From: an uncultured Ruminococcus sp.
GTDB lineage: Bacteria > Bacillota > Clostridia > Oscillospirales > CAG-272
Reading direction: 5' to 3'
Assembly: GCA_902761695.1 (NCBI GenBank)
Contig: CACWLT010000002.1
Coordinates: forward strand, 13,210-61,834
Length of the DNA: 48,625 nt
In this document: positions 12,545 through 35,622 of the stretch, in pieces
How the letters are laid out: the number at the start of each line of letters is the position of its first letter
Position numbering within the stretch: the stretch's first letter is position 1
Notes under the pieces: generated by a model
The model's database searches: none
Told to the model about the DNA's origin: nothing
Seen by the model: only the letters and a program-made list of their open reading frames with translations
Translations under genes and position numbers: made by a program

Positions 12545-14269
<1,725 letters not shown>

Positions 14270-14292
14270 TCATTCTGCATTCTGTATTTTTC

Positions 14293-15822: not shown

Positions 15823-15843
15823 ATCGAATGCGCAGTCTCCTTT

Positions 15844-16590
15844 TCAGCGGTTTTCGTCCGCGGCGGCTCCGTCTGCCTCCGTCCGGTCCTCCAGCCTGCC
15901 CATGATCTCCCGGTACGCTTCCTCCACGCCTCCGAGATCCCGGCGGAAACGGTCCTTATCCAGCTTTTTCCCGGTCTCGCTGTCCCACAGTCTGCAGGTA
16001 TCGGGGCTGATTTCGTCCGCGAGGATGATGCTTCCGTCCGGCAGCCTGCCGAATTCCAGCTTGAAATCGACCAGGGTGACGCCCCGGGCGAGCCAGAAGG
16101 CCTTTAAAAGCTCGTTCGTCCGGAACGAGAGCGTCTTGATCTCCTCGATCTCCTCCGGCGCGGCGAGGCCGAGGGCCAGGGCGTGGTACTCGTTGAGGAG
16201 CGGGTCGCCCAGCGCGTCGTTTTTGTACGAGAACTCGATGGTGGGGGAATCGAACGCGGTCCCCTCCTCCACGCCGTAGTTTTTTGCGAAGGATCCGGCA
16301 GCCATGTTGCGGACGATCACCTCCAGCGGAACGATTTTCACCTTTTTCACAAGGGTGTCCCGGTCGTTCAGCTCCTTCACATAGTGCGTCGGGATCCCTT
16401 CCTTCGCCAGATAGCGCATCAGGGCGTTGCTCATCCGGTTGTTGATGACGCCCTTGCCCTCGATAGTCCCGCGCTTCAGGCCGTTGAACGCGGTCGCGTC
16501 GTCCTTGTAGGACACGATCAGAAGCGCCGGATCCTCGGTCGCATAGACTCTTTTTGCCTTTCCCTCGTAGAGCAGAGAACCTTTTTCCAT
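15844..16590 (-). CDS. purC: SAICAR synthetase
   Basis: LYEGKAK, KDDATAFNG, LVDFKLEFG, LADEISPDTCRLWD; GGAGG before ATG 16590. Confidence 0.96.
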   Translation of the reverse strand: MEKGSLLYEGKAKRVYATEDPALLIVSYKDDATAFNGLKRGTIEGKGVINNRMSNALMRYLAKEGIPTHYVKELNDRDTLVKKVKIVPLEVIVRNMAAGSFAKNYGVEEGTAFDSPTIEFSYKNDALGDPLLNEYHALALGLAAPEEIEEIKTLSFRTNELLKAFWLARGVTLVDFKLEFGRLPDGSIILADEISPDTCRLWDSETGKKLDKDRFRRDLGGVEEAYREIMGRLEDRTEADGAAADENR

Positions 16591-16630
16591 GATTTCCTCC
16601 GTTTCGGACAATCTGTATCTTCGATTTTGT

Positions 16631-17215
16631 TTAAGCTTCGCTGTCTCTGATGATCTCCAGGGCGATCTCCCTGCGTGGGAGACAGCGGTCCATCGCCTGT
16701 TTTTCGATATACCGGTGCGCGGCGGCCTCGTCCATCGAGCGCGTCCGGATCAGCGCCCATTTGGCCCGGTTGACGAGGCGGATTTCCTCCATCTTTTCCT
16801 CCAGCGTGAGGGTCTTTCTCTCGGACATCCGCAGCCGTTCCCTGGCGCTCCGCATCCACGAGAGGGCGGTCGAGACGGTGTTTTTCGACACGGGCTTCGG
16901 GAGGACGAACACCCCGCGGCCGCCGAGCCTTTCGTCCGTTTCCGCGTAAAGCTCCGCCCGGACGAGGAAGAGGACGACGCATCCGCCCGACGACGAATCG
17001 ATGGCGAAGCGCGCGCCGCTGTCGTCCGGCAGGGGGGAATTGACGAGGATCAGGTCGAATTCCCGCTCCGCCGCCGCCCGTTTCGCCGCCGAGACGGATG
17101 TGACGCCCTGCACGGGGGAATAGCGTTCCTCCGTCAGCATGGAGCGGAGCGCGTCGTTCATCTGTCCCGGCGCGGACACGAGCAGAACGCCGTACGCGCG
17201 GCCTTCTTCAAGCAT
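16631..17215 (-). CDS. Pseudo-receiver + ANTAR RNA-binding antiterminator (NitR/AmiR-like)
   Basis: C-terminal EIRLVNRAKWALI..MDEAAAHRYIEKQAMDR..REIA. The receiver lacks its acidic pocket (LLVSA) and phospho-Asp (LILVNSPLP). Confidence 0.9.
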   Translation of the reverse strand: MLEEGRAYGVLLVSAPGQMNDALRSMLTEERYSPVQGVTSVSAAKRAAAEREFDLILVNSPLPDDSGARFAIDSSSGGCVVLFLVRAELYAETDERLGGRGVFVLPKPVSKNTVSTALSWMRSARERLRMSERKTLTLEEKMEEIRLVNRAKWALIRTRSMDEAAAHRYIEKQAMDRCLPRREIALEIIRDSEA

Positions 17216-17255: not shown

Positions 17256-18428
17256 TCACTCCGCGCCGTAGGCCTTCCGCACGGACGGGGGCAGGCAGTC
17301 CCGGACGAAGCCGCTGTTTTTCGCTGAGGCTTTCGCCGCCGAAAGATCCCCGGGCAGCCGCGCTCCGCTTGCCGTGTTCCCCTCTGGCGGCAGAACGGCG
17401 CCTTTATAAAATCCCGCCAGTCCCGCGCGGATCAGCAGCGTCAGGGCGAGGTACGGGTTCGCGCCGGGATCCGGGGAACGCAGCTCGGCCCGGTTCTCCC
17501 CTTCCGGCATCCAGACAAGGCGGGCGCGATCCCTGCCGGACCACGCGATTCCGTTGTCCCGCCCCGCGAGCCGTCTATAGGAACTCTCCGTCGGATTGAG
17601 AAAGAGCGTCATGGCGCCGAGGTGGGAGAGGATTCCGGACGTGACTGCGGCGAGGGCCTGTTCCCCGGGGCACGCATCCTTCGCCGGCCGCACGGAATAG
17701 TTGATGTGGCATCCGTTCCCGGGCTCCCCGTCCAGGGGCTTGGGGGAGAAATCCGCCGCGAGGCCGTTGCGGTGCGCCACGGTGCGGACCACGGTCTGGA
17801 AGGTCATGGCGTTATCCGCGGCGGAGAGGGCATCGGAGAAATGAAAGTCGATTTTGTTCTGGCCCGGTCCCTCCTCATGGCAGGAGCTTTCCGGGCGGAT
17901 CCCCATCTGCTCGAGAGTCAGGCAGACCTCCCGCCGGATGTTCTCCCCCCGGTCCTCGGGCGCGATGTCCATGTAGCCCGCGCGGTCGTAGGGAATCCCC
18001 GTGGTCCTGCCGTCCTCGTCCGTGCGGAAGAGGTAGAAGGTCTGCTGGAGGCCGAAGAGGAAGGACAGTCCCGCCTCCTCCGCGTCCGCCGCCGCTTTTT
18101 TCAGAAGGCTCCGGGTATCGGCGGGATGGGGTGTGCCGTCGGGGAGAGCCGCCGCCGCGTACATTCTCACGACCCTCCCGTGCTCCGGACGCCAGGGCAG
18201 CACCGAAAGCGTCGCGGGGTCGGGGCGGAGCGTCAGGCTCGGCTCCCCCTCAAAACCGCAAACGGCGGAGGGATAAAAGGGTATCCCCCCGTCAAAGGCG
18301 CGCTCCAGCTCACCGGGCATGATGGAGATATTTTTCTGCCGTCCGAAAAGATCGCAGAAGGCCAGGCGGATGAACTTGACGTCCTCTTCACGGACGTATT
18401 CCATGACCTCGTCTTTGGTATAATTCAT
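17256..18428 (-). CDS. glnA: Glutamine synthetase type I homolog with degenerate active site
   Basis: VKFIRLAFCDLFG, LPWRP, HEEGPGQ, PKP..GNGCH, ELRSPD; several metal ligands substituted (see findings). Confidence 0.85.
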   Translation of the reverse strand: MNYTKDEVMEYVREEDVKFIRLAFCDLFGRQKNISIMPGELERAFDGGIPFYPSAVCGFEGEPSLTLRPDPATLSVLPWRPEHGRVVRMYAAAALPDGTPHPADTRSLLKKAAADAEEAGLSFLFGLQQTFYLFRTDEDGRTTGIPYDRAGYMDIAPEDRGENIRREVCLTLEQMGIRPESSCHEEGPGQNKIDFHFSDALSAADNAMTFQTVVRTVAHRNGLAADFSPKPLDGEPGNGCHINYSVRPAKDACPGEQALAAVTSGILSHLGAMTLFLNPTESSYRRLAGRDNGIAWSGRDRARLVWMPEGENRAELRSPDPGANPYLALTLLIRAGLAGFYKGAVLPPEGNTASGARLPGDLSAAKASAKNSGFVRDCLPPSVRKAYGAE

Positions 18429-18469
18429 GACAATACTCCTGAAATGCAGTGTATTCGCACTATGTAAGG

Positions 18470-18850: not shown

Positions 18851-18946
18851 GGCGGAGAATATAATTCATCCGCGCGAATTGGAGGGTATTCATTCGCTGG
18901 GAGGTGTTATCCTTTTGGTGGTGTTCCTTTTCTGCTCGTCCGCCCG

Positions 18947-19669
18947 TCAGTTTTCCACGTACATTCTGCGGTAGGGGTTGGCGGTGTCGGGGGTTATGAG
19001 GGTGAAGGGGGAAGAGAGGATGCTCTCCGCGTCCTTGGCGAAGAGGGCGGCGTAGGTTTCGATAATCGGGCGGACAGCCGTCATATCCTCCGGGGTCGCC
19101 TCTCTGGCGGTGACCTGGGGAGGGAAGGCGATATCCGTGCAGGAGCCGCGCAGCACCATCTTTCCGCCGTGCATGCCGGTACAGGGGAAGTCCCCCACGA
19201 TCCTGCGGCTGTCCTCGTGCAGGCCCAGCACCACGATGAGGCCGCCGGCCTGGTATTCGCCGAGAAAGCTGCCCGCGCACCCGCCGATGACGAGGACGGG
19301 GATTTTGTCCTTGTATTCCTTCATATGGATCCCGGCCCGGTAACCGGCGCTGTCCCGGACGTAGATTTCCCCGCCGCGCATGGCGTACCCGGCCGCGTCC
19401 CCGATGCTCCCATGGATCACGATCCGGCCGCCGTTCATGGTGTCGCCCACCGCGTCCTGCGCGCTGCCGTCCACCGTGATTTCCGCGCCGTTGAGGTAGG
19501 CGCCCAGGGCGTTGCCGGGGATCCCTCTGATTTCGATGCTGCCCCCGCTCATGCCCGCGCCGATGAACCGCTGGCCGAGGCATCCCGTGACCCGGACGGA
19601 TCCCCCCGCTCCCCGGATCGCCTCGTTCAGCTCCCGGTGGTCCAGCTCCTTTGCGTAAAGCGTCGTCAT
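18947..19669 (-). CDS. Glutamate synthase GXGXG-domain subunit (GltB3-like)
   Basis: GQRFIGAG, GNALGAYLNG, GDTMNGG, GEYQAGG, GMHGG repeats. Confidence 0.9.
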   Translation of the reverse strand: MTTLYAKELDHRELNEAIRGAGGSVRVTGCLGQRFIGAGMSGGSIEIRGIPGNALGAYLNGAEITVDGSAQDAVGDTMNGGRIVIHGSIGDAAGYAMRGGEIYVRDSAGYRAGIHMKEYKDKIPVLVIGGCAGSFLGEYQAGGLIVVLGLHEDSRRIVGDFPCTGMHGGKMVLRGSCTDIAFPPQVTAREATPEDMTAVRPIIETYAALFAKDAESILSSPFTLITPDTANPYRRMYVEN

Positions 19670-20904
19670 ACCGCACCTCCGAATTTTCTCCGCCGTTGTT
19701 CGCGCGAAAAGGCCGCCGTGGTCGCCGCGTGCCGCAGAAGCCCGAAATCGAGCGTATCGAGGGGGATCCTTTCCCGGATGAGGGAGGTATAGATCCCGGC
19801 CCGCTCCTCACAGCCGACGAGGGCAAAGCCGGTGAGGAACCCGTCCTTCGTCCAGAGCTTCTTCATCCACCCCGGTCCGCGCTCTTCAAAGACCGCGCAG
19901 CCCTCGGGAGCCGATCCCGCCGTCAGGCAGTGCAGGCCGAAGAAGCCGATGGCGTTGAGAGGGACGGCGTTGTCAAAGGTCCTGTCCCCGCCCGCCATAT
20001 TGATTCCGGCGCACTCCCCCTGAAGCCTTGCGTTCGGGAGGATGGCGAGCACGCGGTTTGCCCCGAGGGAGGAATCGTACCCTTCGGCGCAGTCCCCGGC
20101 GGCGTAAATATCCGGGACGCTTGTCCGCATGTGTCTGTCAACGATGATCCCGCGATTCACATCGCCGCCGATGTCCTTCACAAGGGCGGTGTTCGCCCGC
20201 ACGCCCACCGCCAGGACGAGGATGTCAAAATCCATCGTCTTTCCGCTTTTCATGACGGCGCGGTTCCCCTCAAACCGATCCGCCGTGTCGCCGGGCAGGA
20301 AGGAGATTCCGTGCTCCTCCAGCCTTGCCCGCATCAGGGCCGCGCCTTCCTCGTCGAGGATGCTGGAGAGGATCCGGGGAGCCAGATCGCAGACCGTGAG
20401 GGAACCCGCGCGTTCCGCCAGTCCCTCCGCGCATTTCAGCCCGATCAGCCCCGCGCCGACGATGAGCACGCGGCTGTTCTCCGTGACCGCGGCGTCCAGG
20501 GCGAGCATGTCGTCCATGGTCATGAAGGAGAACTTTCGCGCCACCGTGTCCAGCCCCGCCATGGGAGGGACGAAGGGGGAGGATCCCGCCGCGACGCAGA
20601 GCTTCGTGTAGGGCAGGCACGCGCCTTCGTTCAGTGTCACGGATTTTTTATCGGGATCGATCCCGACGGCTTTTGTACCGAACAGGACTCTGCATCCGTT
20701 TTTCTCATAGAAATCCGCCGGACGCTGGTTCATGTTCCCGGGATCCGCCTTCCCTTCAAGCGCGCAGGAGATGAGCGGGCGGCAGTAGGCGGGGTATTTT
20801 TCGGCGGAGATCACGGTGACCGGCGATTCCGTGTCAAGGGAGCGGATCCCCTCGATGCAGGAGACCGCCGCCGTCCCGTTGCCGATGATGACGTAGTTTT
20901 CCAT
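19666..20904 (-). CDS. FAD/NAD(P)H pyridine nucleotide-disulfide oxidoreductase, probable electron-input subunit of the split GOGAT
   Basis: IIGNGTAA, YCRP, IVGAGLIG, TSVPDIYAAGDC. Confidence 0.85.
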   Translation of the reverse strand: MENYVIIGNGTAAVSCIEGIRSLDTESPVTVISAEKYPAYCRPLISCALEGKADPGNMNQRPADFYEKNGCRVLFGTKAVGIDPDKKSVTLNEGACLPYTKLCVAAGSSPFVPPMAGLDTVARKFSFMTMDDMLALDAAVTENSRVLIVGAGLIGLKCAEGLAERAGSLTVCDLAPRILSSILDEEGAALMRARLEEHGISFLPGDTADRFEGNRAVMKSGKTMDFDILVLAVGVRANTALVKDIGGDVNRGIIVDRHMRTSVPDIYAAGDCAEGYDSSLGANRVLAILPNARLQGECAGINMAGGDRTFDNAVPLNAIGFFGLHCLTAGSAPEGCAVFEERGPGWMKKLWTKDGFLTGFALVGCEERAGIYTSLIRERIPLDTLDFGLLRHAATTAAFSREQRRRKFGGAV

Positions 20905-20908
20905 GGCC

Positions 20909-21340
20909 TTACCTCTCCTCATAGACGATGGCGCGGTTCGGACAGCCCTTCACGCACGCCGGTTCTCCGGACGCGTTTGAAAGGCACAGCTCGCATTTCT
21001 GCATCACGCCGTCCTCCGCCGGAGCGAGCGCGCCGTAGGGACAGACGAGGACGCAGGTGAAGCAGCCCACGCAGCGGGTTTTTTCGATCCGGATCACCCC
21101 GTCCTCCCCCTGCGAGAGAGCTCCGGCGATGCAGGCCTTCACGCAGAGAGGGTCGTCGCAGTGGCGGCAGGATACGGCGTAGGTCACCCGCTCGTCCCCT
21201 TCGATATGGATGCGCGGGAAGATCGGCTTCCCCCGGAGCGCGGACGCCATGTCGGACCCGCCGGAATTGGCGAAGGCGCAGTTGTATTCGCAGAGATGGC
21301 AGCCGAGGCACCACTCTTCGTTGACGTAAACTCTTTTCAT
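20909..21340 (-). CDS. 4Fe-4S dicluster protein (HydN/CooF-like)
   Basis: CLGCHLCEYNC, CRHCDDPLCVKAC, CVGCFTCVLVCP, KCELC..CVKGCP. Confidence 0.9.
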   Translation of the reverse strand: MKRVYVNEEWCLGCHLCEYNCAFANSGGSDMASALRGKPIFPRIHIEGDERVTYAVSCRHCDDPLCVKACIAGALSQGEDGVIRIEKTRCVGCFTCVLVCPYGALAPAEDGVMQKCELCLSNASGEPACVKGCPNRAIVYEER

Positions 21341-21343
21341 CCT

Positions 21344-22849
21344 TCATTCCCCCGCGTGGGCGATGCCTAAAATCTCCAGCTCCTTCTCCGTCATCCCGAC
21401 GCCGCGGAGCATGAGCCGGTTGCCGCGCAGCGCTTCGATCGAATTGATCCCCATGCCGCCGAGCAGCTCCATGATTTCGTGCCGCCAGGCCGTCATGAGG
21501 TTGACGAGGCGTTCGGAGCCCACGTCCGGGTTGAGCCGCTTCACAAGCTCCGGCCTCTGCGTCGCGATGCCCCAGCTGCACCGCCCGGTCTGGCAGGTGC
21601 GGCAGAGATGACAGCCCAGCGCCAGGAGGGCTGCCGTGGCGATATAGCACGCGTCCGCTCCGAGAGCGACGGCCTTCACCACGTCTGCGGCGGAACGGAT
21701 GCTGCCCCCGACCACCAGGGATACGTCTCCCCGGATCCCCTCGTCCCTGAGACGTCTGTCCACGGATGCCAGGGCAAGCTCGATGGGGATCCCCACGTTG
21801 TCCCGGATCCTTGTGGGAGCCGCGCCCGTGCCGCCCCGGAAGCCGTCGATGGCGATGATGTCCGCGCCGGACCGGGCGATCCCCGAGGCGATGGCGGCGA
21901 TGTTGTGGACGGCGGCGACCTTGACGATCACCGGCTTTTTGTATTCCGTCGCTTCCTTGAGGGAGAGGACGAGCTGGCGGAGATCCTCGATGGAATATAT
22001 ATCGTGATGCGGAGCCGGGGAGATGGCGTCGGAGCCCTCGGGGATCATGCGCGTCCGGCTGACGTCCCCCACGATCTTCGCTCCGGGCAGGTGTCCGCCG
22101 ATCCCCGGCTTCGCGCCCTGGCCCATCTTGATCTCGATGGCCGCGCCCGCCCGCAGGTAGTCCTCGTGGACCCCGAACCGCCCGGACGCCACCTGCACCA
22201 CGGTGTTCGGCCCGTATTTGTAAAAATCCTCGTGAAGCCCGCCCTCGCCGGTGTTGTAGAGAATGCCCAGCTTCTCCGCCGCTCTCGCGAGGGAGGCGTG
22301 GGCGTTGTAGGAGATGGATCCGTAGCTCATGGCGGAGAACATCACGGGCATGGACAGCGCGATCTGCGGCGGGAGGCTTGTGTCAAGGGTTCCGTCCGGT
22401 TTTCTTCTGATTTTGTCCGGCTTCTTTCCGAGGAAGACCCGGGTCTCCATGGGCTCTCTGAGCGGGTCGATGGGGGGATTGGTGACCTGGGAAGCGCCTA
22501 CGAGCATCCTGTCCCAGTACACCGGCAGCGGATTCGGGTTGCCCATGGACGAGAGCAGCACCCCGCCCGAGGACGCCTGCTTGTAGATTTCCCCAATGGC
22601 GGTGCCCTGCCAGTTGGCGTTCTCCCGGAAGGCGTTCGGGTTCTTCACGATCTTCAGCGCCCTTGTGGGACAGAGGGAGACGCACCGCTGGCAGTCCACG
22701 CACCTCGTTTCGTCCGAGAGCATGATCCCGCGCTCCTCATCGAACCGGTGCACCTCGTTGGCGCACTGTCGCTCGCACACACGGCAGGCGATGCAGCGGG
22801 CTTCATTGCGCTGAACCTCAAATTCCGGCTGTACATACGCGATTGCCAT
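21344..22849 (-). CDS. Glutamate synthase FMN-binding subunit with N-terminal ferredoxin (GltB2-like)
   Basis: Start MAIAYVQ (TAATG overlap with the upstream gene); AMSYGS, NTGEGG, QVASGRFG, EIKMGQGAKPGIGGHLPG, CHLCRTC..C. Confidence 0.93.
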   Translation of the reverse strand: MAIAYVQPEFEVQRNEARCIACRVCERQCANEVHRFDEERGIMLSDETRCVDCQRCVSLCPTRALKIVKNPNAFRENANWQGTAIGEIYKQASSGGVLLSSMGNPNPLPVYWDRMLVGASQVTNPPIDPLREPMETRVFLGKKPDKIRRKPDGTLDTSLPPQIALSMPVMFSAMSYGSISYNAHASLARAAEKLGILYNTGEGGLHEDFYKYGPNTVVQVASGRFGVHEDYLRAGAAIEIKMGQGAKPGIGGHLPGAKIVGDVSRTRMIPEGSDAISPAPHHDIYSIEDLRQLVLSLKEATEYKKPVIVKVAAVHNIAAIASGIARSGADIIAIDGFRGGTGAAPTRIRDNVGIPIELALASVDRRLRDEGIRGDVSLVVGGSIRSAADVVKAVALGADACYIATAALLALGCHLCRTCQTGRCSWGIATQRPELVKRLNPDVGSERLVNLMTAWRHEIMELLGGMGINSIEALRGNRLMLRGVGMTEKELEILGIAHAGE

Positions 22850-23949
22850 TACCGATTCCCCCCTTCCGTCCTTGCCGTCACGACGACGGGTTCTCCGCCC
22901 GCCGGATACCGGATGTTCCCGGCCTCGGGATCCATGGCCCGGATGGCGGCCTCTTCGCTGGCGATATACACCCGGGAGCCGTGCTCGCCCACCACCATGG
23001 ACCGCAGCTTCAGCCTGTCGTTCAGCGCCATGAGCCCCCCGTTGAAGCCGAGGATGATGGAGAAAGGCCCGGTGACGAGCAGGGAGGGGAAGAGCGTGCG
23101 GAGACAGGTGAGCTTTTCCCGCTTCTCCGGATCCTCCTCCGCCTCGATGGACGACCAGAACGGAGCCGCGGTCACCGACGCCGCCTCTTCGAGCGTCAGG
23201 CCCTGCCGCCGGAGCAGATAGTCCATGATGTAGGTGATGACCTCGGTGTCGGTCTGGAGAGTGCATTTGTAGCCGAACATCTCGATCCACCGGCGGTTGG
23301 CGTCGTAGGAGGAGATCTCCCCGTTGTGGACCACGGACCAGTCCAGCAGGGTGAAGGGATGCGCGCCGCCCCACCAGCCGGGGGTGTTCGTAGGATACCG
23401 CCCGTGCGCCGTCCACGCGTACCCGGCGTATTCCTCCAGCCGGTAGAACTCCGCCACGTCCTCGGGATAGCCCACGGCCTTGAAAGCGCCCATGTTCTTC
23501 CCCGACGAGAAGACGTACCCGCCCCGCCGCTCCGTATTGATCTTCATCACCGTGCGCACGACGAATTCACGCTCGTCCACCTGCTCCGCCGCGAGCCGTG
23601 ATTTCAGCGGATCGACGAAATACCGCCAGATCACCGGCTCGTCCGTGACGGCGGGGATCTTCCTTGTGGGGACGAGCTCACTCTTTACGATCTCGAACCG
23701 TTCCTTTAAATAGACCTCGCAGTCCTTGCGCGCCGCCCGGTCCTCGAAAAAGAAATGCAGGGCGTAAAAATCACGGTATTCCGGATAGATCCCGTAGCCG
23801 GCGAATCCCCCGCCCAGGCCGTTGGAGCGCTCGTGCATGGGGCGCATGGCCTCGGCCGTGAGGTTCCCGGGGATCATCCCGCCGTCCCGGTCGATCACGG
23901 CGGCGATGGCGCAGCCCGATGGGATCCTGACCTCTCCTTCCATTTTCAT
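22849..23949 (-). CDS. Class II glutamine amidotransferase subunit (GltB1-like)
   Basis: SGCAI, ERSNGLGGG, AHGRYPTNT, AHPF, HNGEI, TDTE, NDRLKLR; GGAGG RBS. Confidence 0.9.
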   Translation of the reverse strand: MKMEGEVRIPSGCAIAAVIDRDGGMIPGNLTAEAMRPMHERSNGLGGGFAGYGIYPEYRDFYALHFFFEDRAARKDCEVYLKERFEIVKSELVPTRKIPAVTDEPVIWRYFVDPLKSRLAAEQVDEREFVVRTVMKINTERRGGYVFSSGKNMGAFKAVGYPEDVAEFYRLEEYAGYAWTAHGRYPTNTPGWWGGAHPFTLLDWSVVHNGEISSYDANRRWIEMFGYKCTLQTDTEVITYIMDYLLRRQGLTLEEAASVTAAPFWSSIEAEEDPEKREKLTCLRTLFPSLLVTGPFSIILGFNGGLMALNDRLKLRSMVVGEHGSRVYIASEEAAIRAMDPEAGNIRYPAGGEPVVVTARTEGGNR

Positions 23950-23961
23950 GGTCTTCCTCCG

Positions 23962-24049
23962 AAAAAGAAAACGCGCCCATCCCGAAAAACCGGAATGAAC
24001 GCCTTTGCTCATTTGTCCGTATTATACGGGATTCCGCCGGAGTTGTCAA
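23962..24049 (-). promoter_or_regulatory. sigmaA promoter + ANTAR-type hairpin overlapping a terminator (leftward operon)
   Basis: TTGACA-17 nt-TATAAT (24049-24021); AATGAGC-AAAGGC-GTTCATT hairpin (24013-23994); terminator GCGTTCATTCCGG..TCGGGATGGGCGC-GTTTTCTTTTT. Confidence 0.82.
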
Positions 24050-24130
24050 GGGGGAGCGCGTAAATTCGAGCGAATAAATATTCAAAGGCATACCGCCCGA
24101 ATTTTGTGCAACTTACCAGTGAGGTTCCCC

Positions 24131-24315
24131 TTGACAGGACGGAAAAAGCGGAGTATAATACCGCCATGGAAGGCAAAGGCGTCTTCGCGGATCGGTTTCG
24201 CGGAGGCGTTTTCCTTTTTTACCATGATACAGTGGATCGGCAAAATCACATATTTATACAATAAAGGCAAAGGCGTCTTTATCCGGGGAATCCGGAGAGG
24301 TGTCTTTGCCTTTCT
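24131..24315 (+). promoter_or_regulatory. sigmaA promoter + two tandem ANTAR-type hairpin/attenuator units (rightward operon)
   Basis: TTGACA(24131)-17 nt-TATAAT(24154); GAAGGC-AAAGGC-GTCTTC (24169-24186) with terminator to 24220; ATAAAGGC-AAAGGC-GTCTTTAT (24261-24282) inside a competing long hairpin to 24315. Confidence 0.82.
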
Positions 24316-24352
24316 CACATTTCAGGGCCTTACGGGGCAGGAGGATTTCACA

Positions 24353-26452
24353 ATGGCGGCAAACGTGCAGGAAACATTCGGCAGCATGGTGTTCGACGAC
24401 AGAGTCATGAAGGCGCATCTCCCGGCAAAGGTCTACGCGTCCCTCAGAAAGACCATCGACGAGGGCGCGGAGCTGGACGTGGCCGTGGCCAACGCGGTGG
24501 CAGACGCCATGAAGGAATGGGCCGTCTCAAAGGGCGCGACCCACTTCACCCACTGGTTCCAGCCGCTCACCGGCATCACGGCGGAAAAGCACGATTCCTT
24601 CATCTCCCCGGCTCCGGACGGCGGCGTCCTCATGGAGTTTTCCGGAAAGGAGCTCATCAAGGGCGAGCCGGACGCCTCCTCCTTCCCCTCGGGCGGACTG
24701 CGGGCCACCTTCGAGGCCAGGGGCTACACCGCGTGGGATCCGACCTCCTACGCCTTCATCAAGGGAAAGACCCTCTGCATCCCCACGGCCTTCTGCTCCT
24801 ACGGCGGGCACGCGCTGGACAAGAAGACGCCCCTGCTCCGCTCCATGGAGGCCATCAACCGGCAGGCGCTGCGCATTCTCCGGCTCTTCGGAAATACGGA
24901 CGTCAAGCGCGTCACTACCTCGGTGGGACCGGAACAGGAGTATTTCCTCATCGACCGGAAGCTCTACGAGAAACGGCCCGATCTGCGCTTCACCGGCCGG
25001 ACCCTCTTCGGCGCGAAGCCTCCCAAGGGCCAGGAGATGGACGACCACTACTTCGGCGTCATCAAGCCCCGCGTCGCCGCCTACATGGAGGAGCTGAACG
25101 AGGAGCTCTGGAAGCTGGGGATCCTCGCCAAGACGGAGCACAACGAGGTGGCCCCTGCCCAGCACGAGCTGGCTCCGATCTATACCACCACCAACGTTGC
25201 CACGGATCACAACCAGCTCACCATGGAGATCATGCAGAAGGTGGCGGCGAAGCACGGGCTGGTCTGCCTGCTCCACGAAAAGCCCTTCGCAGGGGTCAAC
25301 GGCTCCGGCAAGCACAACAACTGGTCCATCGCGACGGACACGGGGGTCAACCTCCTCTCCCCGGGCGAGACGCCCTATGAAAACGCGCAGTTCTTAACCT
25401 TCCTCTGCGCCGTGATCCAGGCCGTGGACGACTACGCCGACCTCCTCAGGATCTCCGTGGCGACCGCCGGCAACGACCACAGACTGGGCGCCAACGAGGC
25501 CCCGCCCGCCGTGGTGTCCATGTTCCTCGGGGACGAGCTGACCGCCATCCTTGACGCCATCGAGGCGGACAGGCCCTACAGCGCGGCGGAGAAGACCGTC
25601 ATGAAGCTGGGCGCGGACGTGCTCCCCCAGTTCCGCCGGGACGCCACGGACCGCAACCGCACCTCCCCCTTCGCCTTCACCGGCAACAAGTTCGAGTTCC
25701 GGATGCTGGGCTCCTCCAACTCCATCGCCTGCGCCAACATCATGCTCAACGCCGCCGTAGCCGAGAGCCTGAGACAGTACGCGGACCGGCTGGAGGCGGC
25801 GGACGATTTCGAGGCGGCCCTGCACGACCTGATCCGGGACGTGGTGGCCGCCCACAAGCGGATCCTCTTCAACGGCAACGGCTACGACGACGCGTGGATC
25901 AAAGAGGCGACGGAGGTCCGCGGCCTGCCCAACTACCGCACCACCCCCGACTGCTTCCCGGAGCTTCTGTCCGAGAAGAACGTCACGATGCTGACCTCCC
26001 ACGGCGTCTTCACCCCGGCGGAGCTGAAATCCCGGTACGAGATTATGCTGGAGAACTACTGCAAGACCGTGCTGATCGAGGCGAACACCATGATCGACAT
26101 GGCGAAGCGGCAGATCCTCCCGGCGGTTGCCTCGTATGCCGCTGCCCTTTCCTCCGACATCGCGGCGAAGCGGTCCGTCTCCGAGCCCCTGTCCTGCCGG
26201 TACGAGGTCCGCACCGCCGCAGCCCTGTCCCGTCTCGCGGATTCCATCGCGGACCGGGTGGACGAGCTGGAGACGGCGGCGGACAAAGCGCGGAAGATCG
26301 GGGAGATCGGTCCCCAGTCCTTCGCCATCCGGGACCACGTTCTCGGCGGCATGACGGCTCTGCGCGGCCTATGTGACGAGGCTGAGACGATCACCGCCGC
26401 GGAATACTGGCCGTTCCCGACCTACGGGGAGCTGCTGTTCGGCGTGAACTGA
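24353..26452 (+). CDS. glnN: Glutamine synthetase type III
   Basis: [83 protein letters not shown]; catalytic motifs intact. Confidence 0.95.
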
Positions 26453-26534
26453 CAAGCGTCTGTTCATGACTGCGGGGCTGTACAAAATCCTGCGCGCTGC
26501 TGTCCCCGCCATTACCCTGAAAGGGAGTACCACC

Positions 26535-28250
26535 ATGACTTACTCATCCGTCAACACCATCTGGGTCCTGCTCGGCGCGGCCCTCGTCTTCTTCATGCAG
26601 GCCGGATTTTCCATGTGCGAGGCCGGCTTCACCCGTGCCAAGAATACCGGAAACATCCTCATGAAGAACCTCATGGATTTCTGCATCGGAACCCCGGCGT
26701 TCTGGCTCGTGGGTTTCGGGATCATGTTCGGCTCGGGCACGGCCCTCTTCGGGCGCATCGATCCCTTCATCCTGGGAGACTACAGCCATATCCTCCCGGC
26801 GGGCGTTCCGCTCTGGGCGTTCGCCATTTTCCAGACCGTCTTCTGCGCCACCTCCGCGACCATCGTGTCCGGGGCCATGGCGGAGCGGACGAAGTTCTCG
26901 GCGTACTGCATCTATTCCCTCTGCATCTCCCTCTTCATCTATCCCGTCTCCGGCCACTGGATCTGGGGCGGCGGCTGGCTCTCCGCGCTGGGGTTCCACG
27001 ATTTCGCGGGCTCGACCTGCGTGCACATGGTGGGCGGGGTCTGCGCGTGCATCGGCGCGGCGATCCTTGGTCCCCGCATCGGCAAGTACGGACGGGACGG
27101 CAAGCCGAAGGCGATCCTCGGCCACAATCTGACGGCGGCGGCGCTGGGGGTGTTCATTCTCTGGTTCTGCTGGTTCGGCTTCAACGGCGCGTCCACCGTG
27201 GGCATGGATTCCGACGAGCTGGTGGTCTCCGCCGGACTGGTCTTCTTCAACACCAACCTCTGCGCGGCCGTCGCCTGCTGCACCACCCTGATCACCACGT
27301 GGATCCGCTACAAAAAGCCCGACGTCTCCATGACCTACAACGCGGCGCTGGCGGGTCTGGTGGGGATCACGGCGGGATGCGACGCGGTCTCTCCGGCAGG
27401 AGCGGCGGTGATGGGCCTCTGTTTCGGCTTTGTCATTGTCTTCTCCGTGGAGTTTTTCGACAAGGTGGCGAAGATCGACGATCCCGTCGGGGCGATCTCC
27501 GTTCACGGGATCTGCGGCGCGCTGGGCACGATCCTCACGGGCTTCTTCGCCACGGGCGTTTCCACCGAGAAGGGCGTCTTCTACGGCGGCGGGTTCCGTT
27601 TCCTCGGCGTGCAGGCCCTCGGCGTCGTGACCGTGGCGGCGTATGTGGCCCTCGTCATTACGATTGTTTTCTTCATCCTCAAAAAGACCGTCGGGCTCCG
27701 GGCCGATCCCGCGGACGAGATACAGGGACTGGACGTCTCGGAGCACGGGCTGCTGACCGCCTACGCCGGATTTGCCATGTCCCCCGACACCGCGAGCATG
27801 GAAAGCGATTCCGCGCCCGTTGTCGTGACCGGAGACGCCCCGCCCGCCGAGGCCGTGACCGTGAAGCGCGTTCCCTCGTTCGAGGAAGGGACGCCGAAGT
27901 TCACCAAGGTCGAAATCATCTGCAAGGAGAGCCGCTTTGAAGCGCTGAAAAACGCCATGACCGACCTCGGCATCACGGGCATGACCGTCTCCCACGTCCT
28001 CGGCTGCGGACAGCAGAAGGGACGGACGGAATACTACCGGGGCATTGCGGTAGAGGCGACGCTTCTGCCGAAGGTGCAGGTGGACATCGTCGTATCGAAG
28101 ATCCCGGTCCGCTCCGTGATCGAGACGGCGAAGAAGGTCCTTTACACCGGCCACATCGGCGACGGCAAGATCTTCGTTTACGACGTGGAGAACATCGTGA
28201 AGGTCCGGACCGGCGAGGAAGGCTACGACGCCCTGCAGGACGTGGAATAA
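26535..28250 (+). CDS. amtB: Ammonium transporter fused to a C-terminal PII domain
   Basis: FFMQAGF, IVSGAMAER, DFAGSTCVH, WFGFNG, DDPVGAISVHG; then PII ITGMTVSHVLGCG..TGHIGDGKIFV..VRTGEEG. Confidence 0.95.
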   Translation: MTYSSVNTIWVLLGAALVFFMQAGFSMCEAGFTRAKNTGNILMKNLMDFCIGTPAFWLVGFGIMFGSGTALFGRIDPFILGDYSHILPAGVPLWAFAIFQTVFCATSATIVSGAMAERTKFSAYCIYSLCISLFIYPVSGHWIWGGGWLSALGFHDFAGSTCVHMVGGVCACIGAAILGPRIGKYGRDGKPKAILGHNLTAAALGVFILWFCWFGFNGASTVGMDSDELVVSAGLVFFNTNLCAAVACCTTLITTWIRYKKPDVSMTYNAALAGLVGITAGCDAVSPAGAAVMGLCFGFVIVFSVEFFDKVAKIDDPVGAISVHGICGALGTILTGFFATGVSTEKGVFYGGGFRFLGVQALGVVTVAAYVALVITIVFFILKKTVGLRADPADEIQGLDVSEHGLLTAYAGFAMSPDTASMESDSAPVVVTGDAPPAEAVTVKRVPSFEEGTPKFTKVEIICKESRFEALKNAMTDLGITGMTVSHVLGCGQQKGRTEYYRGIAVEATLLPKVQVDIVVSKIPVRSVIETAKKVLYTGHIGDGKIFVYDVENIVKVRTGEEGYDALQDVE

Positions 28251-28262
28251 CGGAGGAATGTC

Positions 28263-29846
28263 ATGTGTTCCATCATGACCTGTTACGAAAGCTCTGTCTC
28301 CCCGGAGGCGTTCCGCACGGGGTTTGAGCGCACAAAGTCCCGGGGGCCGGACGACAGCCGAATCGTGGAGCGGGACGGCATACGCATGGCCTTTCACCGC
28401 CTCGCCATCATGGGCCCGACCTCCGAGGGGATGCAGCCCTTCGAGCGGGACGGCTCCCTGGCGGTCTGCAACGGCGAGATCTACGGTTTCGAAAAGCTGA
28501 AGACAGAGCTCACGGCGAAGGGATATTCCTTTGCGAGCGATTCCGACTGCGAGATCCTCCTGCCCCTCTGGTTTGAGTACGGGACGGACATGTTCTCCCT
28601 GCTCGACGCGGAGTTCGCCTGCGTGATCTGGGACGGGCGAAAGAAGGAGTTCGTCGCGGCGCGGGATCCCATCGGCATCCGTCCCCTGTTTTACGGGTAC
28701 GGGGCGGACGGGAGGATCCTGTTCGCGTCCGAGGCGAAGAACCTCGTGGGGCTGACGGAGCGCGTGATCCCTTTCCCGCCGGGATGTTACTGGAAAGACG
28801 GCGCGTTCGTCCGGTACTGCGGCATCGCGAAGCCGGAGAGCATCATCCGGGACGACCTCGACACCGTCTGCCGGAATATCCGGGAAAAGCTCACGGCCGG
28901 GGTGGAAAAGCGCCTCGTCGCGGACGTTGAGGTCGGGTTCCTGCTCTCGGGCGGGCTCGATTCCTCCCTTGTTTGCGCCGTCGCGCAGAGGAAGAGCGCG
29001 GAGCCCATCCGTACCTTCGCCATCGGGATGGAGGGGGACGCCATCGATCTGCGCTACGCAAGGCAGGCGGCGGACTGGATCGGGAGCGAGCACACGGAGG
29101 TCACGATGACCCGGGAGGAGGTTTTATCCTCCCTTGAAACCGTCATCGCCGCCCTCGGGACGTGGGACATTACAACGATCCGCGCCAGCATGGGGATGTA
29201 CCTGGTGTGCAAGGCCATTCACGACACGACGGACATCCGGGTGCTCCTTACCGGGGAGATTTCGGACGAGCTCTTCGGCTACAAGTACACCGATTTCGCC
29301 CCCGATGCCGCGGCGTTTCAGGCGGAGGCGGAGAAGCGGATCCGGGAGCTCTATATGTACGACGTGCTCCGGGCGGACCGCTGCATCTCCGTCCACTCTC
29401 TGGAGGCCCGGGTTCCGTTCGGGGATCTGGATTTCGTGAAGTACGTCATGGCAATCGATCCGGAGATGAAGCTGAACCGGTACGGAAAGGGCAAATACCT
29501 CCTGCGCCGGGCGTTTGCCGAGGGGGACTGGCTGCCCCCGGAGATCCTCTGGCGGGAAAAGGCGGCGTTCTCGGACGCGGTGGGCCATTCGATGGTGGAC
29601 GATCTGAAGGAATACGCCGAGGGACTTTATTCAGACGAAGAATTTGAGAAAAAGCGGAGGGCATATTCCCACTGTCCGCCCTTCACGAAGGAATCCCTGC
29701 TGTACCGGGAGATTTTCGAGAAGCACTACCCAGGCCAGGCGGAGATGATCAAGGACTTCTGGATGCCGAACCGGGCCTGGAAGGGCTGCGATGTGAACGA
29801 TCCGTCCGCCAGGGTCTTGACAAACTACGGAGACAGCGGAAAATGA
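28263..29846 (+). CDS. asnB: Asparagine synthase B (glutamine-hydrolysing)
   Basis: N-terminal Cys, RGPD, HRLAI, CNGEIY, ARDPIGIRPL, LLSGGLDSS, GEISDELFGY. Confidence 0.95.
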   Translation: MCSIMTCYESSVSPEAFRTGFERTKSRGPDDSRIVERDGIRMAFHRLAIMGPTSEGMQPFERDGSLAVCNGEIYGFEKLKTELTAKGYSFASDSDCEILLPLWFEYGTDMFSLLDAEFACVIWDGRKKEFVAARDPIGIRPLFYGYGADGRILFASEAKNLVGLTERVIPFPPGCYWKDGAFVRYCGIAKPESIIRDDLDTVCRNIREKLTAGVEKRLVADVEVGFLLSGGLDSSLVCAVAQRKSAEPIRTFAIGMEGDAIDLRYARQAADWIGSEHTEVTMTREEVLSSLETVIAALGTWDITTIRASMGMYLVCKAIHDTTDIRVLLTGEISDELFGYKYTDFAPDAAAFQAEAEKRIRELYMYDVLRADRCISVHSLEARVPFGDLDFVKYVMAIDPEMKLNRYGKGKYLLRRAFAEGDWLPPEILWREKAAFSDAVGHSMVDDLKEYAEGLYSDEEFEKKRRAYSHCPPFTKESLLYREIFEKHYPGQAEMIKDFWMPNRAWKGCDVNDPSARVLTNYGDSGK

Positions 29847-31270
29847 GTATTCACGAAGAATGCGGCGTGTTCGGGGTGTTTTCCCCGGAGCCGGCCGACG
29901 CGGCGGGGATCGTTTACTGCGGTCTCTTCGCCCTGCAGCACCGGGGACAGGAGTCCTGCGGGATCGTGGCGGCGGACGACGGGGTGTTTTCCTCGCACAA
30001 GGATCTGGGACTGGTCGGGGAGGTCTTCACGCCGGAGACGCTCTCGAAGCTGCCCCGGGGAAATATGGCGGTGGGACACGTCCGGTATGCCACCACGGGT
30101 GGCGGGAACAACCGGGCCAACTGCCAGCCCATCGAGGTCAATCACGTCAAGGGACACATGGCCCTCGCCCACAACGGCAACCTCGCGAACGCGGCGGAGC
30201 TGAGGGGGGAGCTGGAGCTGTCCGGCGCGATCTTCCACACCACCTCGGACACGGAAACCATCGCCTATCTGGTGACGCGGGAGAGGGTGCGGACGTCCTC
30301 CATCGAAGACGCTCTCTCCGCCGCCATGCCCCGCTTTGACGGAGCCTATTCCCTCGTCCTCATGTCCCCCCAGAAGCTGCTCTGCGCCCGGGATCCCTAC
30401 GGTTTCCGGCCCCTCTGTTACGGCAGGCGGGAGGACGGGATCTGGGTCGTGGCCTCGGAGTCCTGCGCGCTGAAGGCGGTGGGAGCGGCGTTCATCCGTG
30501 ACGTGGAGCCGGGGGAGATCCTGGTTTTCACAAGGGACGGCGTCATATCCCGCCGGGAGCACTGCGGAGAAAAGCCGCGGCGCTTCTGCGCGTTTGAGTA
30601 TATCTATTTCGCCCGTCCGGATTCCGTTCTGGACGGGGTGAGCGTGCACCGGGCGCGGCGGGAGGCGGGACGAATCCTGGCAAGGGAGTGTCCTGCGGAG
30701 GCGGAGCTTGTGATCGGCGTGCCGGATTCGGGGATCGACGCGGCGCTGGGATATGCCGAGGTCTCCGGGATCCCATACGGTATTGGGCTCATCCGGAACA
30801 AATACGTGGGCCGGACCTTCATCGCCCCGGAGGAAAGCGGGCGGCATGATCAGGTGAAGATCAAGCTCGCGGCCGTGGAGGAGGCCGTGCGGGGGCGGCG
30901 GATCGTGCTGATCGACGATTCCATAGTCCGGGGAACGACCAGCGGGCGGATCGTGGGACTGCTCAGGGAGGCCGGCGCACGGGAAATCCACATGCGCATC
31001 TCCTCCCCGCCCTTCGTCAGCCCCTGTTACTACGGCACGGACATCGACTCGAAGGAGCATCTCATTGCCGTGAAGCACACCACCGAAGAAATCTCCCACA
31101 TCATCGGCGCGGATTCGCTCGGGTATCTGCCCATCGAGGGGCTCCGGGAAATGACCGGGCGGGACGATCTCTGCACCGCGTGCTTCGACGGGAGCTACCC
31201 CACGGCGATCCCGGCGGACACGAGAAAGGACCGGTTTGAGGCGCGGCTGAACCGGAGGAAAACGATATGA
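29843..31270 (+). CDS. purF: Amidophosphoribosyltransferase
   Basis: EECGVFG, LQHRGQE, GHVRYAT, FEYIYFARPDS, DDSIVRGTT. Confidence 0.96.
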   Translation: MSIHEECGVFGVFSPEPADAAGIVYCGLFALQHRGQESCGIVAADDGVFSSHKDLGLVGEVFTPETLSKLPRGNMAVGHVRYATTGGGNNRANCQPIEVNHVKGHMALAHNGNLANAAELRGELELSGAIFHTTSDTETIAYLVTRERVRTSSIEDALSAAMPRFDGAYSLVLMSPQKLLCARDPYGFRPLCYGRREDGIWVVASESCALKAVGAAFIRDVEPGEILVFTRDGVISRREHCGEKPRRFCAFEYIYFARPDSVLDGVSVHRARREAGRILARECPAEAELVIGVPDSGIDAALGYAEVSGIPYGIGLIRNKYVGRTFIAPEESGRHDQVKIKLAAVEEAVRGRRIVLIDDSIVRGTTSGRIVGLLREAGAREIHMRISSPPFVSPCYYGTDIDSKEHLIAVKHTTEEISHIIGADSLGYLPIEGLREMTGRDDLCTACFDGSYPTAIPADTRKDRFEARLNRRKTI

Positions 31271-32355
31271 CGGAAAAAGGGATGAGAAAACTTGTGACCT
31301 CCGACGGCGCGGTGTATGTCGGAGAAGGCTTCGGCGCGTCCCCGGACCGGGTGTGCGAGCTGGTCTTCAACACCTCCATGGCCGGGTATCAGGAGATTTT
31401 GTCCGATCCCTCCTACACCGATCAGGCGGTGGTGATGACCTATCCGACGATCGGCAATTACGGGCTGAATCCGGACGACTGGGAGACGGACGTCCCCACC
31501 CTCGGCGCGCTCATCGTGCGGGAGGCGTGCGGCACACCGTCGAATTTCCGGTGCGCGGAAACGCTGGAGAATGCCATGAAGCGGTTCGGGATCCCGGGCA
31601 TCTCCGGCATCGACACCCGGAAGCTCACCCGGTCCATCCGGGATCTCGGCAGCCGGAGCGCTCTTATCACGGACGCCGGGACGCCCATGGAGGACTGCAT
31701 GAGGATCCTTCGAGACTACACTCCCCGCCGCGATCAGGTGGCCCGGGTGAGCACGAAGGAAAGCTGCACCGTCTCGCCGGAGCATCCCCGCTTTCATGTG
31801 GCCGCCGTCGACTGCGGAATGAAGAAAAACATCGTCCGTTCCCTCGTGCGGCGCGGATGCCGGGTGACGGTCGTGCCGTGGAATACGGGGGCCGACGCGA
31901 TCCGGGCGCTGCACCCCGACGGCGTCTTTCTCTCAAACGGCCCCGGCGATCCCGAGGACGTGGCGGAGACGATCGGGACGGTGCGGGCCCTGCGCGGGGA
32001 ATTTCCGCTCTTCGGCATCTGCCTCGGCCATCAGATTTTAGCCCTGGCTTATGGCGCGAAGACCTACAAGCTGAAATTCGGCCACCGGGGCGGGAACCAT
32101 CCCGTGAAGGACCTTGTCACCGGGAAAATCGAGATCACCGCCCAGAACCACTCCTACGCCGTGGATGCGGAGAGCCTTGCGGGAACGGGACTGACCGTGA
32201 ACCGGGTGAACCTGCTGGACGGGACGGTGGAGGGGCTTTCGGCTCCGGCTGAGCGGGCGTTTTCCGTCCAGTACCACCCCGAGAGCGTGCCGGGTCCCGA
32301 GGACAGCGGGGAACTGTTCGACGAGTTTATCCGCATGATGCAAATCAAAAAATGA
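31267..32355 (+). CDS. carA: Carbamoyl-phosphate synthase small subunit
   Basis: VFNTSMAGYQE, SNGPGDP, GICLGHQ, QYHPE. Confidence 0.96.
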   Translation: MTEKGMRKLVTSDGAVYVGEGFGASPDRVCELVFNTSMAGYQEILSDPSYTDQAVVMTYPTIGNYGLNPDDWETDVPTLGALIVREACGTPSNFRCAETLENAMKRFGIPGISGIDTRKLTRSIRDLGSRSALITDAGTPMEDCMRILRDYTPRRDQVARVSTKESCTVSPEHPRFHVAAVDCGMKKNIVRSLVRRGCRVTVVPWNTGADAIRALHPDGVFLSNGPGDPEDVAETIGTVRALRGEFPLFGICLGHQILALAYGAKTYKLKFGHRGGNHPVKDLVTGKIEITAQNHSYAVDAESLAGTGLTVNRVNLLDGTVEGLSAPAERAFSVQYHPESVPGPEDSGELFDEFIRMMQIKK

Positions 32356-32367
32356 TGGAGGCGTCCC

Positions 32368-35300: not shown

Positions 35301-35544
35301 GGCCCGGACCCTCCACAAGCTGAGCGAGGGCAGCCATGAGGTCATCGACGCCATCCGGGCCGGCCATGTCAGCTACGTCATCAACACCCGCGCCATCCTC
35401 TCCGGCGTCCACTACGGAGACGGCACCGCCATCCGGCAGGCAGCCATCCAGTCCGGCGTGACCATGTTCACCTCCCTCGACACGGTGAAGGTTCTCCTGG
35501 ACGTGCTGGAGGAAATGACGATCGGAATTTCGAGAATCAGTTAA
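32368..35544 (+). CDS. carB: Carbamoyl-phosphate synthase large subunit
   Basis: [22 protein letters not shown], two ATP-grasp halves, C-terminal MGS-like domain. Confidence 0.97.
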
Positions 35545-35607
35545 GAATTATGAATTAAGAATTGTCCGCGCCGTAATTCTTCATTCTTCATTCTGAATTC
35601 TGAATTT
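35542..35607. repeat. Inverted arrays of AT-rich 7-nt tandem repeats
   Basis: TAAGAAT/TATGAAT/TAAGAAT followed by AATTCT-TCATTCT-TCATTCT-GAATTCT-GAATTT. Confidence 0.75.
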
Positions 35608-35622
35608 ACCCTGGAGGTTATC

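Follow-up and report, generated by a model that had tools for sequence, protein, structure and literature searches.

Single AAAGGC hexaloop hairpins at the predicted 5' ends of divergent nitrogen-assimilation transcripts as candidate ANTAR antiterminators in an uncultured Ruminococcus

We analysed a 48,625-nt stretch of DNA (the window; positions 13,210 to 61,834 of contig CACWLT010000002.1, assembly GCA_902761695.1) from an uncultured Ruminococcus sp., in which two nitrogen-assimilation operons diverge from a common intergenic gap. Both operons are headed by perfect matches to the sigma-A promoter consensus, and their leaders carry three small hairpins with an identical AAAGGC hexaloop, each of which competes with a longer, more stable fold. 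We consider it fairly probable that these hairpins are the antiterminators of protein-dependent transcription attenuators. The feature is real and conserved, and it is almost certainly regulatory; judging from loop sequence and gene linkage, the hairpins are most likely read by an ANTAR protein encoded nearby, which resembles NitR of Clostridium. The element appears to work like an ANTAR antiterminator and yet fails the two-hairpin criterion of that family. Nitrogen genes of Firmicutes are already known to be under ANTAR control, and what seems to be new is the architecture, a single hairpin at the 5' terminus of the transcript.

Results

Promoters, hairpins and terminators in the two leaders

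The intergenic gap of 403 nt lies between the start of a minus-strand gene at 23949 and the start of glnN at 24353. An earlier note on this DNA had described back-to-back perfect sigma-A promoters here, and both match TTGACA-17 nt-TATAAT at 12 of 12 positions: one at 24021..24049 on the minus strand, ahead of the left operon (glutamate synthase (GOGAT), a glutamine synthetase (GS)-like gene and nitR), the other at 24131..24159 on the plus strand, ahead of the right operon (glnN, amtB and further genes). An intergenic scan counted 2 promoter-like sites against 0.4 expected from shuffles. Only 81 nt separate the two -35 boxes, and the predicted transcription starts are at about 24013 on the minus strand and about 24166 on the plus strand. 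The left hairpin (23994..24013, minus strand; arms AATGAGC and GTTCATT, loop from 24006 to 24001) lies 7 nt past its -10 box and forms the predicted 5' end of the transcript, and the first hairpin of the glnN leader (24169..24186, plus strand; arms GAAGGC and GTCTTC, loop 24175-24180) lies 9 nt past its own, both within the distance of about 10 nt that had been claimed. The second glnN-leader hairpin (24261..24282, plus strand; arms ATAAAGGC and GTCTTTAT, loop 24269-24274) stands 92 nt past the first, in agreement with the roughly 90 nt given before. All three loops read AAAGGC on stems that differ, as had been observed; the feature coordinates of the earlier note needed small corrections.

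The left hairpin overlaps an intrinsic terminator (23963..24002, minus strand; stem from 24002 to 23973, then GTTTTCTTTT) whose 5' arm consists of the GGC of the hairpin loop and the hairpin's 3' arm. The first glnN-leader hairpin is likewise overlapped by a terminator at 24176..24222 on the plus strand (stem 24176-24212, then CCTTTTTTAC), and the calls of a terminator scan cover the loop and 3' arm of both hairpins, each with a T tract. The third copy has a long competing hairpin (24263..24323, plus strand, with the hairpin proper at 24263-24313) followed by the weak U tract CTCACATTTC. The proposal that each 3' arm doubles as the 5' arm of a terminator therefore stands for the first two copies and for the third only as far as the competing hairpin goes; given its U tract, the second attenuator of the glnN leader is probably leaky. 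The small hairpins are predicted to fold with -5.2 (left), -5.5 (first glnN) and -5.9 kcal/mol (second glnN), and the competing folds, in the same order, with -24.3, -27.1 and -29.1 kcal/mol. Each competing fold uses the loop and 3' arm of its small hairpin and, because these parts are shared, hairpin and terminator are mutually exclusive by design.

Both strands of the whole assembly (3.66 Mb) together yielded 19 AAAGGC-hexaloop hairpins with a stem of at least 5 bp. Three of them fall within this 290-nt stretch, and the remaining 16 had no promoter or terminator context in the flanks viewed. The bare 9-mer GCAAAGGCG occurs 89 times in the assembly, so that it is the hairpin context which is special and not the word itself. 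Rfam release 15 gave no match at gathering score in the whole window, and in its E-value mode only chance-level matches in 23500-24800. Contigs from four RNA runs matched 23600-24700 mainly in the conserved coding part of glnN and provided no usable transcript start or stop; since their likeness is 90-95%, they come from other organisms.

Conservation, covariation and the loop rule

When the intergenic region was compared by BLAST with 200 other genomes of the family, 20 matched, nearly all at the minus-strand hairpin and its -10 box. The matched loci show the same order of promoter, hairpin and terminator ahead of the same GOGAT gene, and a copy of the GAAGGC/GTCTT type ahead of glnN. A 14-mer scan of all species genomes returned at least 120 stretches. 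Most of the matches listed were chance or coding sequence; among those listed, the full element was present in records named Clostridium butyricum, C. gasigenes, [Eubacterium] hominis, Lachnospiraceae, Oscillospiraceae, Ruminococcaceae and others.

From 40 candidates we compiled an alignment of 33 rows (A1), leaving out six without promoter or gene context and one duplicate. All 217 cells of the antiterminator stem were paired (100%, to be read as an upper bound), five of its seven pairs showed compensatory change, and none of 500 shuffles was as good. In the terminator, 89.6% of 462 cells were paired and 71 cells had changed on both sides, which none of 500 shuffles equalled by cells; compensatory change affected 8 of its 14 pairs, a pair count reached by 54 of the 500 shuffles. 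RNAalifold returned the terminator as the consensus structure of A1. An apparently invariant G-U pair beside the loop was rejected as a feature of the element: its presence in 33 of 33 rows is an artefact of how the rows were fetched, and matches of the covariance model described below also show A-U (GAAC...GUUC).

This covariance model was built on the terminator structure, and its E-values are rough. In the window's own genome it found two sites at E <= 1 and no other match, namely the left hairpin, with 57.5 bits the best in the genome, and the second glnN hairpin (25.2 bits, E 0.28); the first glnN hairpin scored 28.4 bits when the model was run over 60 loci. At E <= 0.01 the model matched 40 of 151 genomes of the family, from 33 of 97 genera, and 26 of 151 genomes of the class, and at E <= 0.001 it matched one of 150 genomes in a phylum sample outside the own genome.

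Over the 60 loci the model gave 92 matches, 76 of them non-overlapping; a hexaloop hairpin was present in 75, the one remaining match being a duplicate on the wrong strand. The loops of the 75 elements read AAAGGC (58), AAGGGC (5), AATGGC (4), AACGGC (3), AAAGGT (2), AAAGGA (1), AAAGAT (1) and AAAGAC (1), so that positions 1, 2 and 4 (A1, A2 and G4) are constant in 75 of 75 and positions 3, 5 and 6 vary. All three A's of the loop pair alike with U's of the terminator, yet position 3 varies and A1 and A2 do not. A1 and G4 are the residues that define ANTAR hexaloops (PMC3369936), as is also stated in PMC8164766. The suggestion that these are ANTAR-type hexaloops thus agrees with the loop rule and the covarying stems, and the operon behind the element includes an ANTAR gene.

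Linkage to an ANTAR gene and the candidate reader

An ANTAR gene was present in 23 of the 26 element-bearing genomes of the class, compared with 81 of 150 overall, and in 20 of the 26 the same contig carried it, 1.7-8.3 kb downstream of the element. Of the three exceptions, two (loci L168 and L169) are plain terminators that the model matched wrongly; in the third, 6.5 kb remain between the match and a contig end, a distance that would be close to the usual spacing of the ANTAR gene. In the window's assembly nitR alone passes the cut-off for an ANTAR gene; it is encoded 7 kb downstream of the left hairpin in the same operon. Genes downstream of the elements are nitrogen-assimilation or amidotransferase genes.

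A reader other than the ANTAR protein, for instance another RNA-binding protein such as a GS-like or P-II protein, or a small ligand, is in our view unlikely. It would fit that ANTAR genes occur much more widely than the detected element (58 of 124 model-negative genomes of the class have one) and that the linkage to the GS gene is as tight as that to the ANTAR gene. Against such a reader, the constant loop positions are the ANTAR-defining A1 and G4, the ANTAR gene lies within the regulated operon in 20 of 26 genomes, and a 20-nt hairpin that matches no Rfam family is too small for any known riboswitch class.

NitR is an AmiR-like pseudo-receiver protein, as judged from its sequence. In an alignment with Rv1626, AmiR and EutV its phospho-acceptor Asp is replaced by Asn59, and the same position in 20 orthologs is occupied by N (16), L (2), H (1) and G (1), never by Asp. 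The Response_reg profile scores 23.6 bits, under its cut-off of 30.2, and the protein lacks the phosphorylatable Asp that marks the response-regulator type of ANTAR protein (EutV, Rv1626). Since the acceptor is absent, phosphorylation cannot be the switch of NitR. The position aligned to an aromatic residue of EutV, Tyr, is His in 19 of the 20 orthologs.

In all 19 regions fetched from element-bearing genomes, a GS or GS-like gene stands directly upstream of the ANTAR gene. The GS-like protein of the window scores 230 bits against TIGR00653, below the equivalog cut-off of 429, and so falls outside the type I GS defined by that model. Compared with 19 orthologs and the solved GS 7tdp, its EPE has become QQT (ExE to QxT) and its GQHEID has become GQNKID (GQxE to GQNK), and at 390 amino acids it is shorter than the orthologs (401-456). 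The changed Glu residues are what we take to be metal ligands in GS. The copy is possibly a pseudoenzyme kept as a sensor, and it may survive in this role because glnN presumably supplies the enzyme activity. A predicted complex of the GS-like protein with NitR scored 0.37, compared with 0.00 for the best of three controls, with an agreement between runs of at least 84% of contacts and a partner predicted local distance difference test value of at least 83; of 80 solved complexes 58 attained the mark for this score, as did 2 of 110 mismatched pairs, and the range up to 0.60 covers 7 of those 80 and both mismatches, so that the prediction, which used alignments of our own, points only weakly to a GS-like/NitR contact.

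A single hairpin next to the promoter

Among the 75 elements, 56, from many genera, have a strong promoter (each box with 5 or 6 of its 6 positions matched, spacer 16-18 nt); from the end of its -10 box to the hairpin there are 5-16 nt, most often 6-8 nt; those outside the 56 are mostly second copies within glnN leaders. A second A..G.. hexaloop hairpin was found in the 60 nt upstream of 7 of 75 elements, where shuffles gave 4.4, and five of these seven were the -35 box; between the hairpin and the end of the terminator there were 5 of 75 against 2.4 expected. Because the promoter is so close in 56 of 75 and no second hexaloop hairpin is conserved, we regard the elements as single-hairpin sites. 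This bears out the remark that the predicted starts leave no room for a first hairpin. The claim that such sites represent a non-canonical recognition mode holds in one half only: the upstream recruitment hairpin P1 is absent, and recognition itself is probably canonical, as the EutV dimer contacts one hexaloop at a time.

Most promoters of the related loci (L003-L170) have T-run/A-run tracts such as TTTTTTGAAAAAA at 5-25 nt upstream of the -35 box, with an A/T fraction of up to 0.93. These tracts resemble UP elements or a shared protein site, and the window's own promoters show them weakly. Such tracts would fit promoters that are strong and constitutive and leave the control of output to attenuation.

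One might instead suppose canonical dual-hairpin sites, with the real start further upstream supplying P1 and the perfect promoters secondary or unused. The targets of EutV, NasR and AmiR do all have P1 and P2 (PMC3369936), and EutV needs both hairpins according to PMC8934654. The closeness of a TTGACA-17-TATAAT promoter, frequently preceded by A/T tracts, to the hairpin in 56 of 75 elements, the near-chance number of upstream hexaloop hairpins, most of them simply the -35 hexamer, and the 81 nt between the window's -35 boxes make this very improbable. Scanning the own genome loosely for canonical dual-hairpin sites returned 289 hairpin pairs; a T run accompanied 15, and the flanks viewed showed no promoter or nitrogen-gene context. 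The sole pair inspected closely (C144) coincides with the start of a gene on the opposite strand and was rejected as a candidate.

Of 8 glnN leaders in relatives that are headed by a promoter, 6 carry two hairpins, which are spaced by 60-98 nt and each have their own terminator-like fold. The tandem attenuator that had been noticed in the window's glnN leader is therefore a conserved gate. It differs from the two tandem stem-loops with a linker of 2-25 nt that define ANTAR targets, the glnN hairpins being 92 nt apart with a terminator between them.

The view that the repeats are a DNA-level operator for a dimeric repressor at +1, or a mere 5' stabiliser before leaky terminators with no regulated antitermination, draws on the overlap of the repeats with the predicted start sites, which are frequent repressor positions, and on the fact that 5' hairpins stabilise mRNAs; we give it very little credence, since the arm sequences change with pairing kept (ATGAGC/GTTCAT, AAGGC/GTCTT, CAGC/GCTG), a G-U pair that would be a G-T mismatch as DNA is kept in 33 of 33 A1 rows (with the reservation about fetching given above), the conserved part is an asymmetric loop, second copies are 60-98 nt removed from the promoter, and hairpin and terminator exclude each other.

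Genes of the two operons

Domain profile searches assign the five genes of the left operon that follow the hairpin (18947..23949, minus strand) to a split, archaeal-type GOGAT, with GATase_2, FMN/Glu_synthase plus Fer4, Fer4, Pyr_redox_2 and FwdC-like domains. A gap of 518 nt separates the last of them from the gene of the GS-I-like protein of 390 amino acids (17256..18428, minus strand; Pfam Gln-synt_N/C), which is directly upstream of nitR (16631..17215, minus strand; 194 amino acids, pseudo-receiver; PF03861 with 54.3 bits, cut-off 27.3). By their profile matches, purC, guaA and pyrG (12545..16611, minus strand) are possible further members. In the right operon, the first gene past the tandem attenuators is glnN, encoding a type III GS (24353..26452, plus strand; GSIII_N 267 bits). 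It is followed by an ammonium transporter fused to a P-II domain in one open reading frame of 594 amino acids (26466..28250, plus strand) and, as possible further members by profile matches, by asnB, a class-II amidotransferase, carA, carB, dapF and an aminotransferase (28263..37616, plus strand).

No strong minus-strand terminator was found in the left series before about 10712, and no strong same-strand terminator in the right series before about 37988. On this terminator-free span, co-transcription of about 25 kb is possible. The idea that the hairpins control up to about 25 kb is thus compatible with the absence of strong terminators, with the qualification that it describes a span only and that a repeat of about 400 nt interrupts the left operon.

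In other genomes (loci L042, L170, L149/L155, L174, L002 and L010) the element directly precedes pyrG, purC, an asnA-like gene, asnB-like amidotransferases or the ANTAR gene itself. As it stands there before pyrG, purC and asnA- and asnB-like genes, the regulon extends to nucleotide and asparagine synthesis.

The interrupting repeat is a highly structured dispersed element at 18448-18851 on the minus strand, inside the 518-nt gap, with a predicted fold of -176.7 kcal/mol (z -6.8). In the assembly it is represented by 68 BLAST pieces (E <= 1e-20) on 57 contigs, 27 of them at least 330 nt long; its 5' module occurs at 100 places on 69 contigs and its 3' module at 92 places on 60 contigs. It has no Rfam match, a search of 100 other genomes of the family gave no copy, and an exact 29-mer from it occurred in no species genome. 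Of 15 copies with enough flank, 7 end 19-82 nt before a same-strand open reading frame start. It may be a mobile element, either similar to a miniature inverted-repeat transposable element or coding for an RNA, and it may split the left operon. The assembly itself comprises 3.66 Mb on 437 contigs and is about 83% complete, compared with 1.9-2.3 Mb for the sampled genomes of the same genus, which are without the hairpin element (0 of 2) and without the repeat; this may reflect a mixed bin or an expansion of the lineage. Besides the possible source, 14 metagenome runs of ruminant or gut origin, belonging to 10 studies, contain near-identical DNA (sharing 0.47-0.76 of sampled words).

Discussion

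We propose the following mechanism for the three hairpins. Transcription from the strong and probably constitutive sigma-A promoters would start at, or 0-3 nt before, the weak AAAGGC hairpin of 6-8 bp. By default, the downstream strand would displace the hairpin, the lowest pairs of the terminator using the hairpin's loop and 3' arm (AAAGGCGUUCAU with AUGRRCGCCUUU), so that the more stable terminator forms and transcription stops. Under nitrogen shortage the NitR-like ANTAR protein would bind the hexaloop as a dimer, through A1, A2 and G4, and keep the hairpin closed, the base of the terminator could not form, and read-through would lead to expression of GOGAT, the GS-like gene and nitR on one side and of glnN, amtB, asnB and following genes on the other, with glnN behind two gates in series. 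In this scheme there is no upstream P1; a single hairpin might be exposed for long enough since it is transcribed first and a variable apical helix comes between it and the 3' arm of the terminator. As NitR is a pseudo-receiver, it is probably switched by a protein partner, for which the adjacent GS or GS-like protein would be the best candidate.

The closest known systems are the ANTAR dual-hexaloop antiterminators read by EutV (at eutP/G/S/A), NasR (at nasF) and AmiR (at amiE), which share with our element the A1/G4 hexaloop, a 3' arm overlapping an intrinsic terminator, a dimeric ANTAR reader (here a candidate) and the theme of nitrogen metabolism (PMC3369936, PMC3369931). When set against the criteria for ANTAR targets (Ramesh 2012, Mehta 2021), the window shows the A1/G4 hexaloop, an ANTAR protein encoded nearby in the same genome, and mutual exclusion of hairpin and terminator, the U tract of the third copy being weak. 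Unlike the known sites, it has one hairpin with no P1 or linker at the predicted 5' end of the transcript, loop nucleotides that form the base of the terminator stem, a constant A2 and a pseudo-receiver regulator. RAT/CAT antiterminators (LicT, SacY, BglG) are also single protein-stabilised hairpins that overlap a terminator (PMC3369936); their protein fold is unrelated (CAT versus ANTAR), and RAT is read via internal loops of the stem and not via a hexaloop.

The gene order resembles glnA-nitR of Clostridium saccharobutylicum and C. acetobutylicum, with an ANTAR gene directly after a GS gene and GS/GOGAT genes as putative targets, and the same element is present ahead of Clostridium-type glnA genes (L028, L092, L166). 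In two articles (PMC6316151, PMC4676874), NitR of C. saccharobutylicum is said to be an antiterminator that induces GS/GOGAT genes upon nitrogen limitation. In contrast to the clostridial module, the neighbour of nitR is here a shortened and probably inactive GS paralog; a type III enzyme, placed behind two gates, is the working GS. A glutamine synthetase that senses nitrogen and contacts a regulator is known from the Bacillus GS-TnrA/GlnR system, as outlined in PMC6316151; this is an analogy only, as the targets there are DNA-binding factors and the GS-NitR contact here is weakly suggested by a structure prediction.

Table S2 of Ramesh et al. 2012 lists predicted ANTAR sites before glutamine synthetase, glutamate synthase-like, amtB/P-II and ANTAR genes in Firmicutes. 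These regulons belong to Desulfotomaculum, Desulfitobacterium and Carboxydothermus and were found with a two-hairpin model, unlike the single sites described here. In part 1 of that table the rows for C. acetobutylicum and C. beijerinckii list no site before glnA, which, as far as this part goes, fits single-hairpin sites being missed. PMC8164766 gives the field's definition of ANTAR targets as dual stem-loops with a linker of 2-25 nt and, because targets have been defined and searched for as two hairpins, published covariance searches are blind to sites of the present kind. We found no description of a single-hexaloop NitR leader in the open-access literature searched, a scope that leaves the primary NitR paper (Stutz et al. 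2007) outside.

Several points weigh against antitermination by single ANTAR-bound hairpins. The most direct ones come from EutV, for which PMC8934654 reports that in vitro both hairpins and their spacing are required, that a linker longer by 20 nt abolishes antitermination, and that the authors expect single-hexaloop sites only where the time limit set by a transcribing polymerase is lifted. The same 2022 structures, as described there, show the ANTAR dimer in contact with one hexaloop at a time, and P1 is seen as a recruitment hairpin under that time limit. Within the window, the third fold (24263-24313) was not called by the terminator scan of the region, its tail CTCACATTTC being a poor U tract. 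Further points concern sampling. Candidates for A1 had to have a stem of at least 5 bp and a foldable terminator, and many rows were fetched by a pattern or BLAST query that contained the core; as the rows were chosen for pairing and core, the 100% pairing and the invariance of the core are partly built in and the figures are upper bounds. The covariance model was seeded with AAAGGC loops only, and the hexaloop finder itself required A1 and G4. Diverged copies missed by the model were present in 2 of 6 inspected class genomes that were ANTAR-positive and model-negative, and ANTAR genes occur in the 58 of 124 class genomes without a model match mentioned above. The model found the element in 0 of 2 genomes of the same genus, and the sampled genomes are related, so that the counts overstate independence.

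Beyond the window, we tentatively put forward a wider scheme, on balance rather doubtful in its entirety, in which the elements define a NitR-type subclass of ANTAR regulation. Its sites would consist of a single 5'-terminal hexaloop without P1, its pseudo-receiver would be switched by contact with GS, which in this organism would have become a dead, dedicated sensor, and the word GC-AANGRN-GU would set the whole network of GS, GOGAT, ammonium uptake and amidotransferases across Clostridia. If there is such a large natural class of single-hairpin sites, P1 would be dispensable for antitermination in vivo, and the class would provide a test of the successive-binding model of EutV. The GS or GS-like protein would be a candidate for the missing sensor of pseudo-receiver ANTAR regulators, and the hairpin could serve synthetic biology as a protein-gated switch of 20 nt. 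Moreover, such a class would provide a simple search rule for the nitrogen regulon of many gut and rumen Clostridia.

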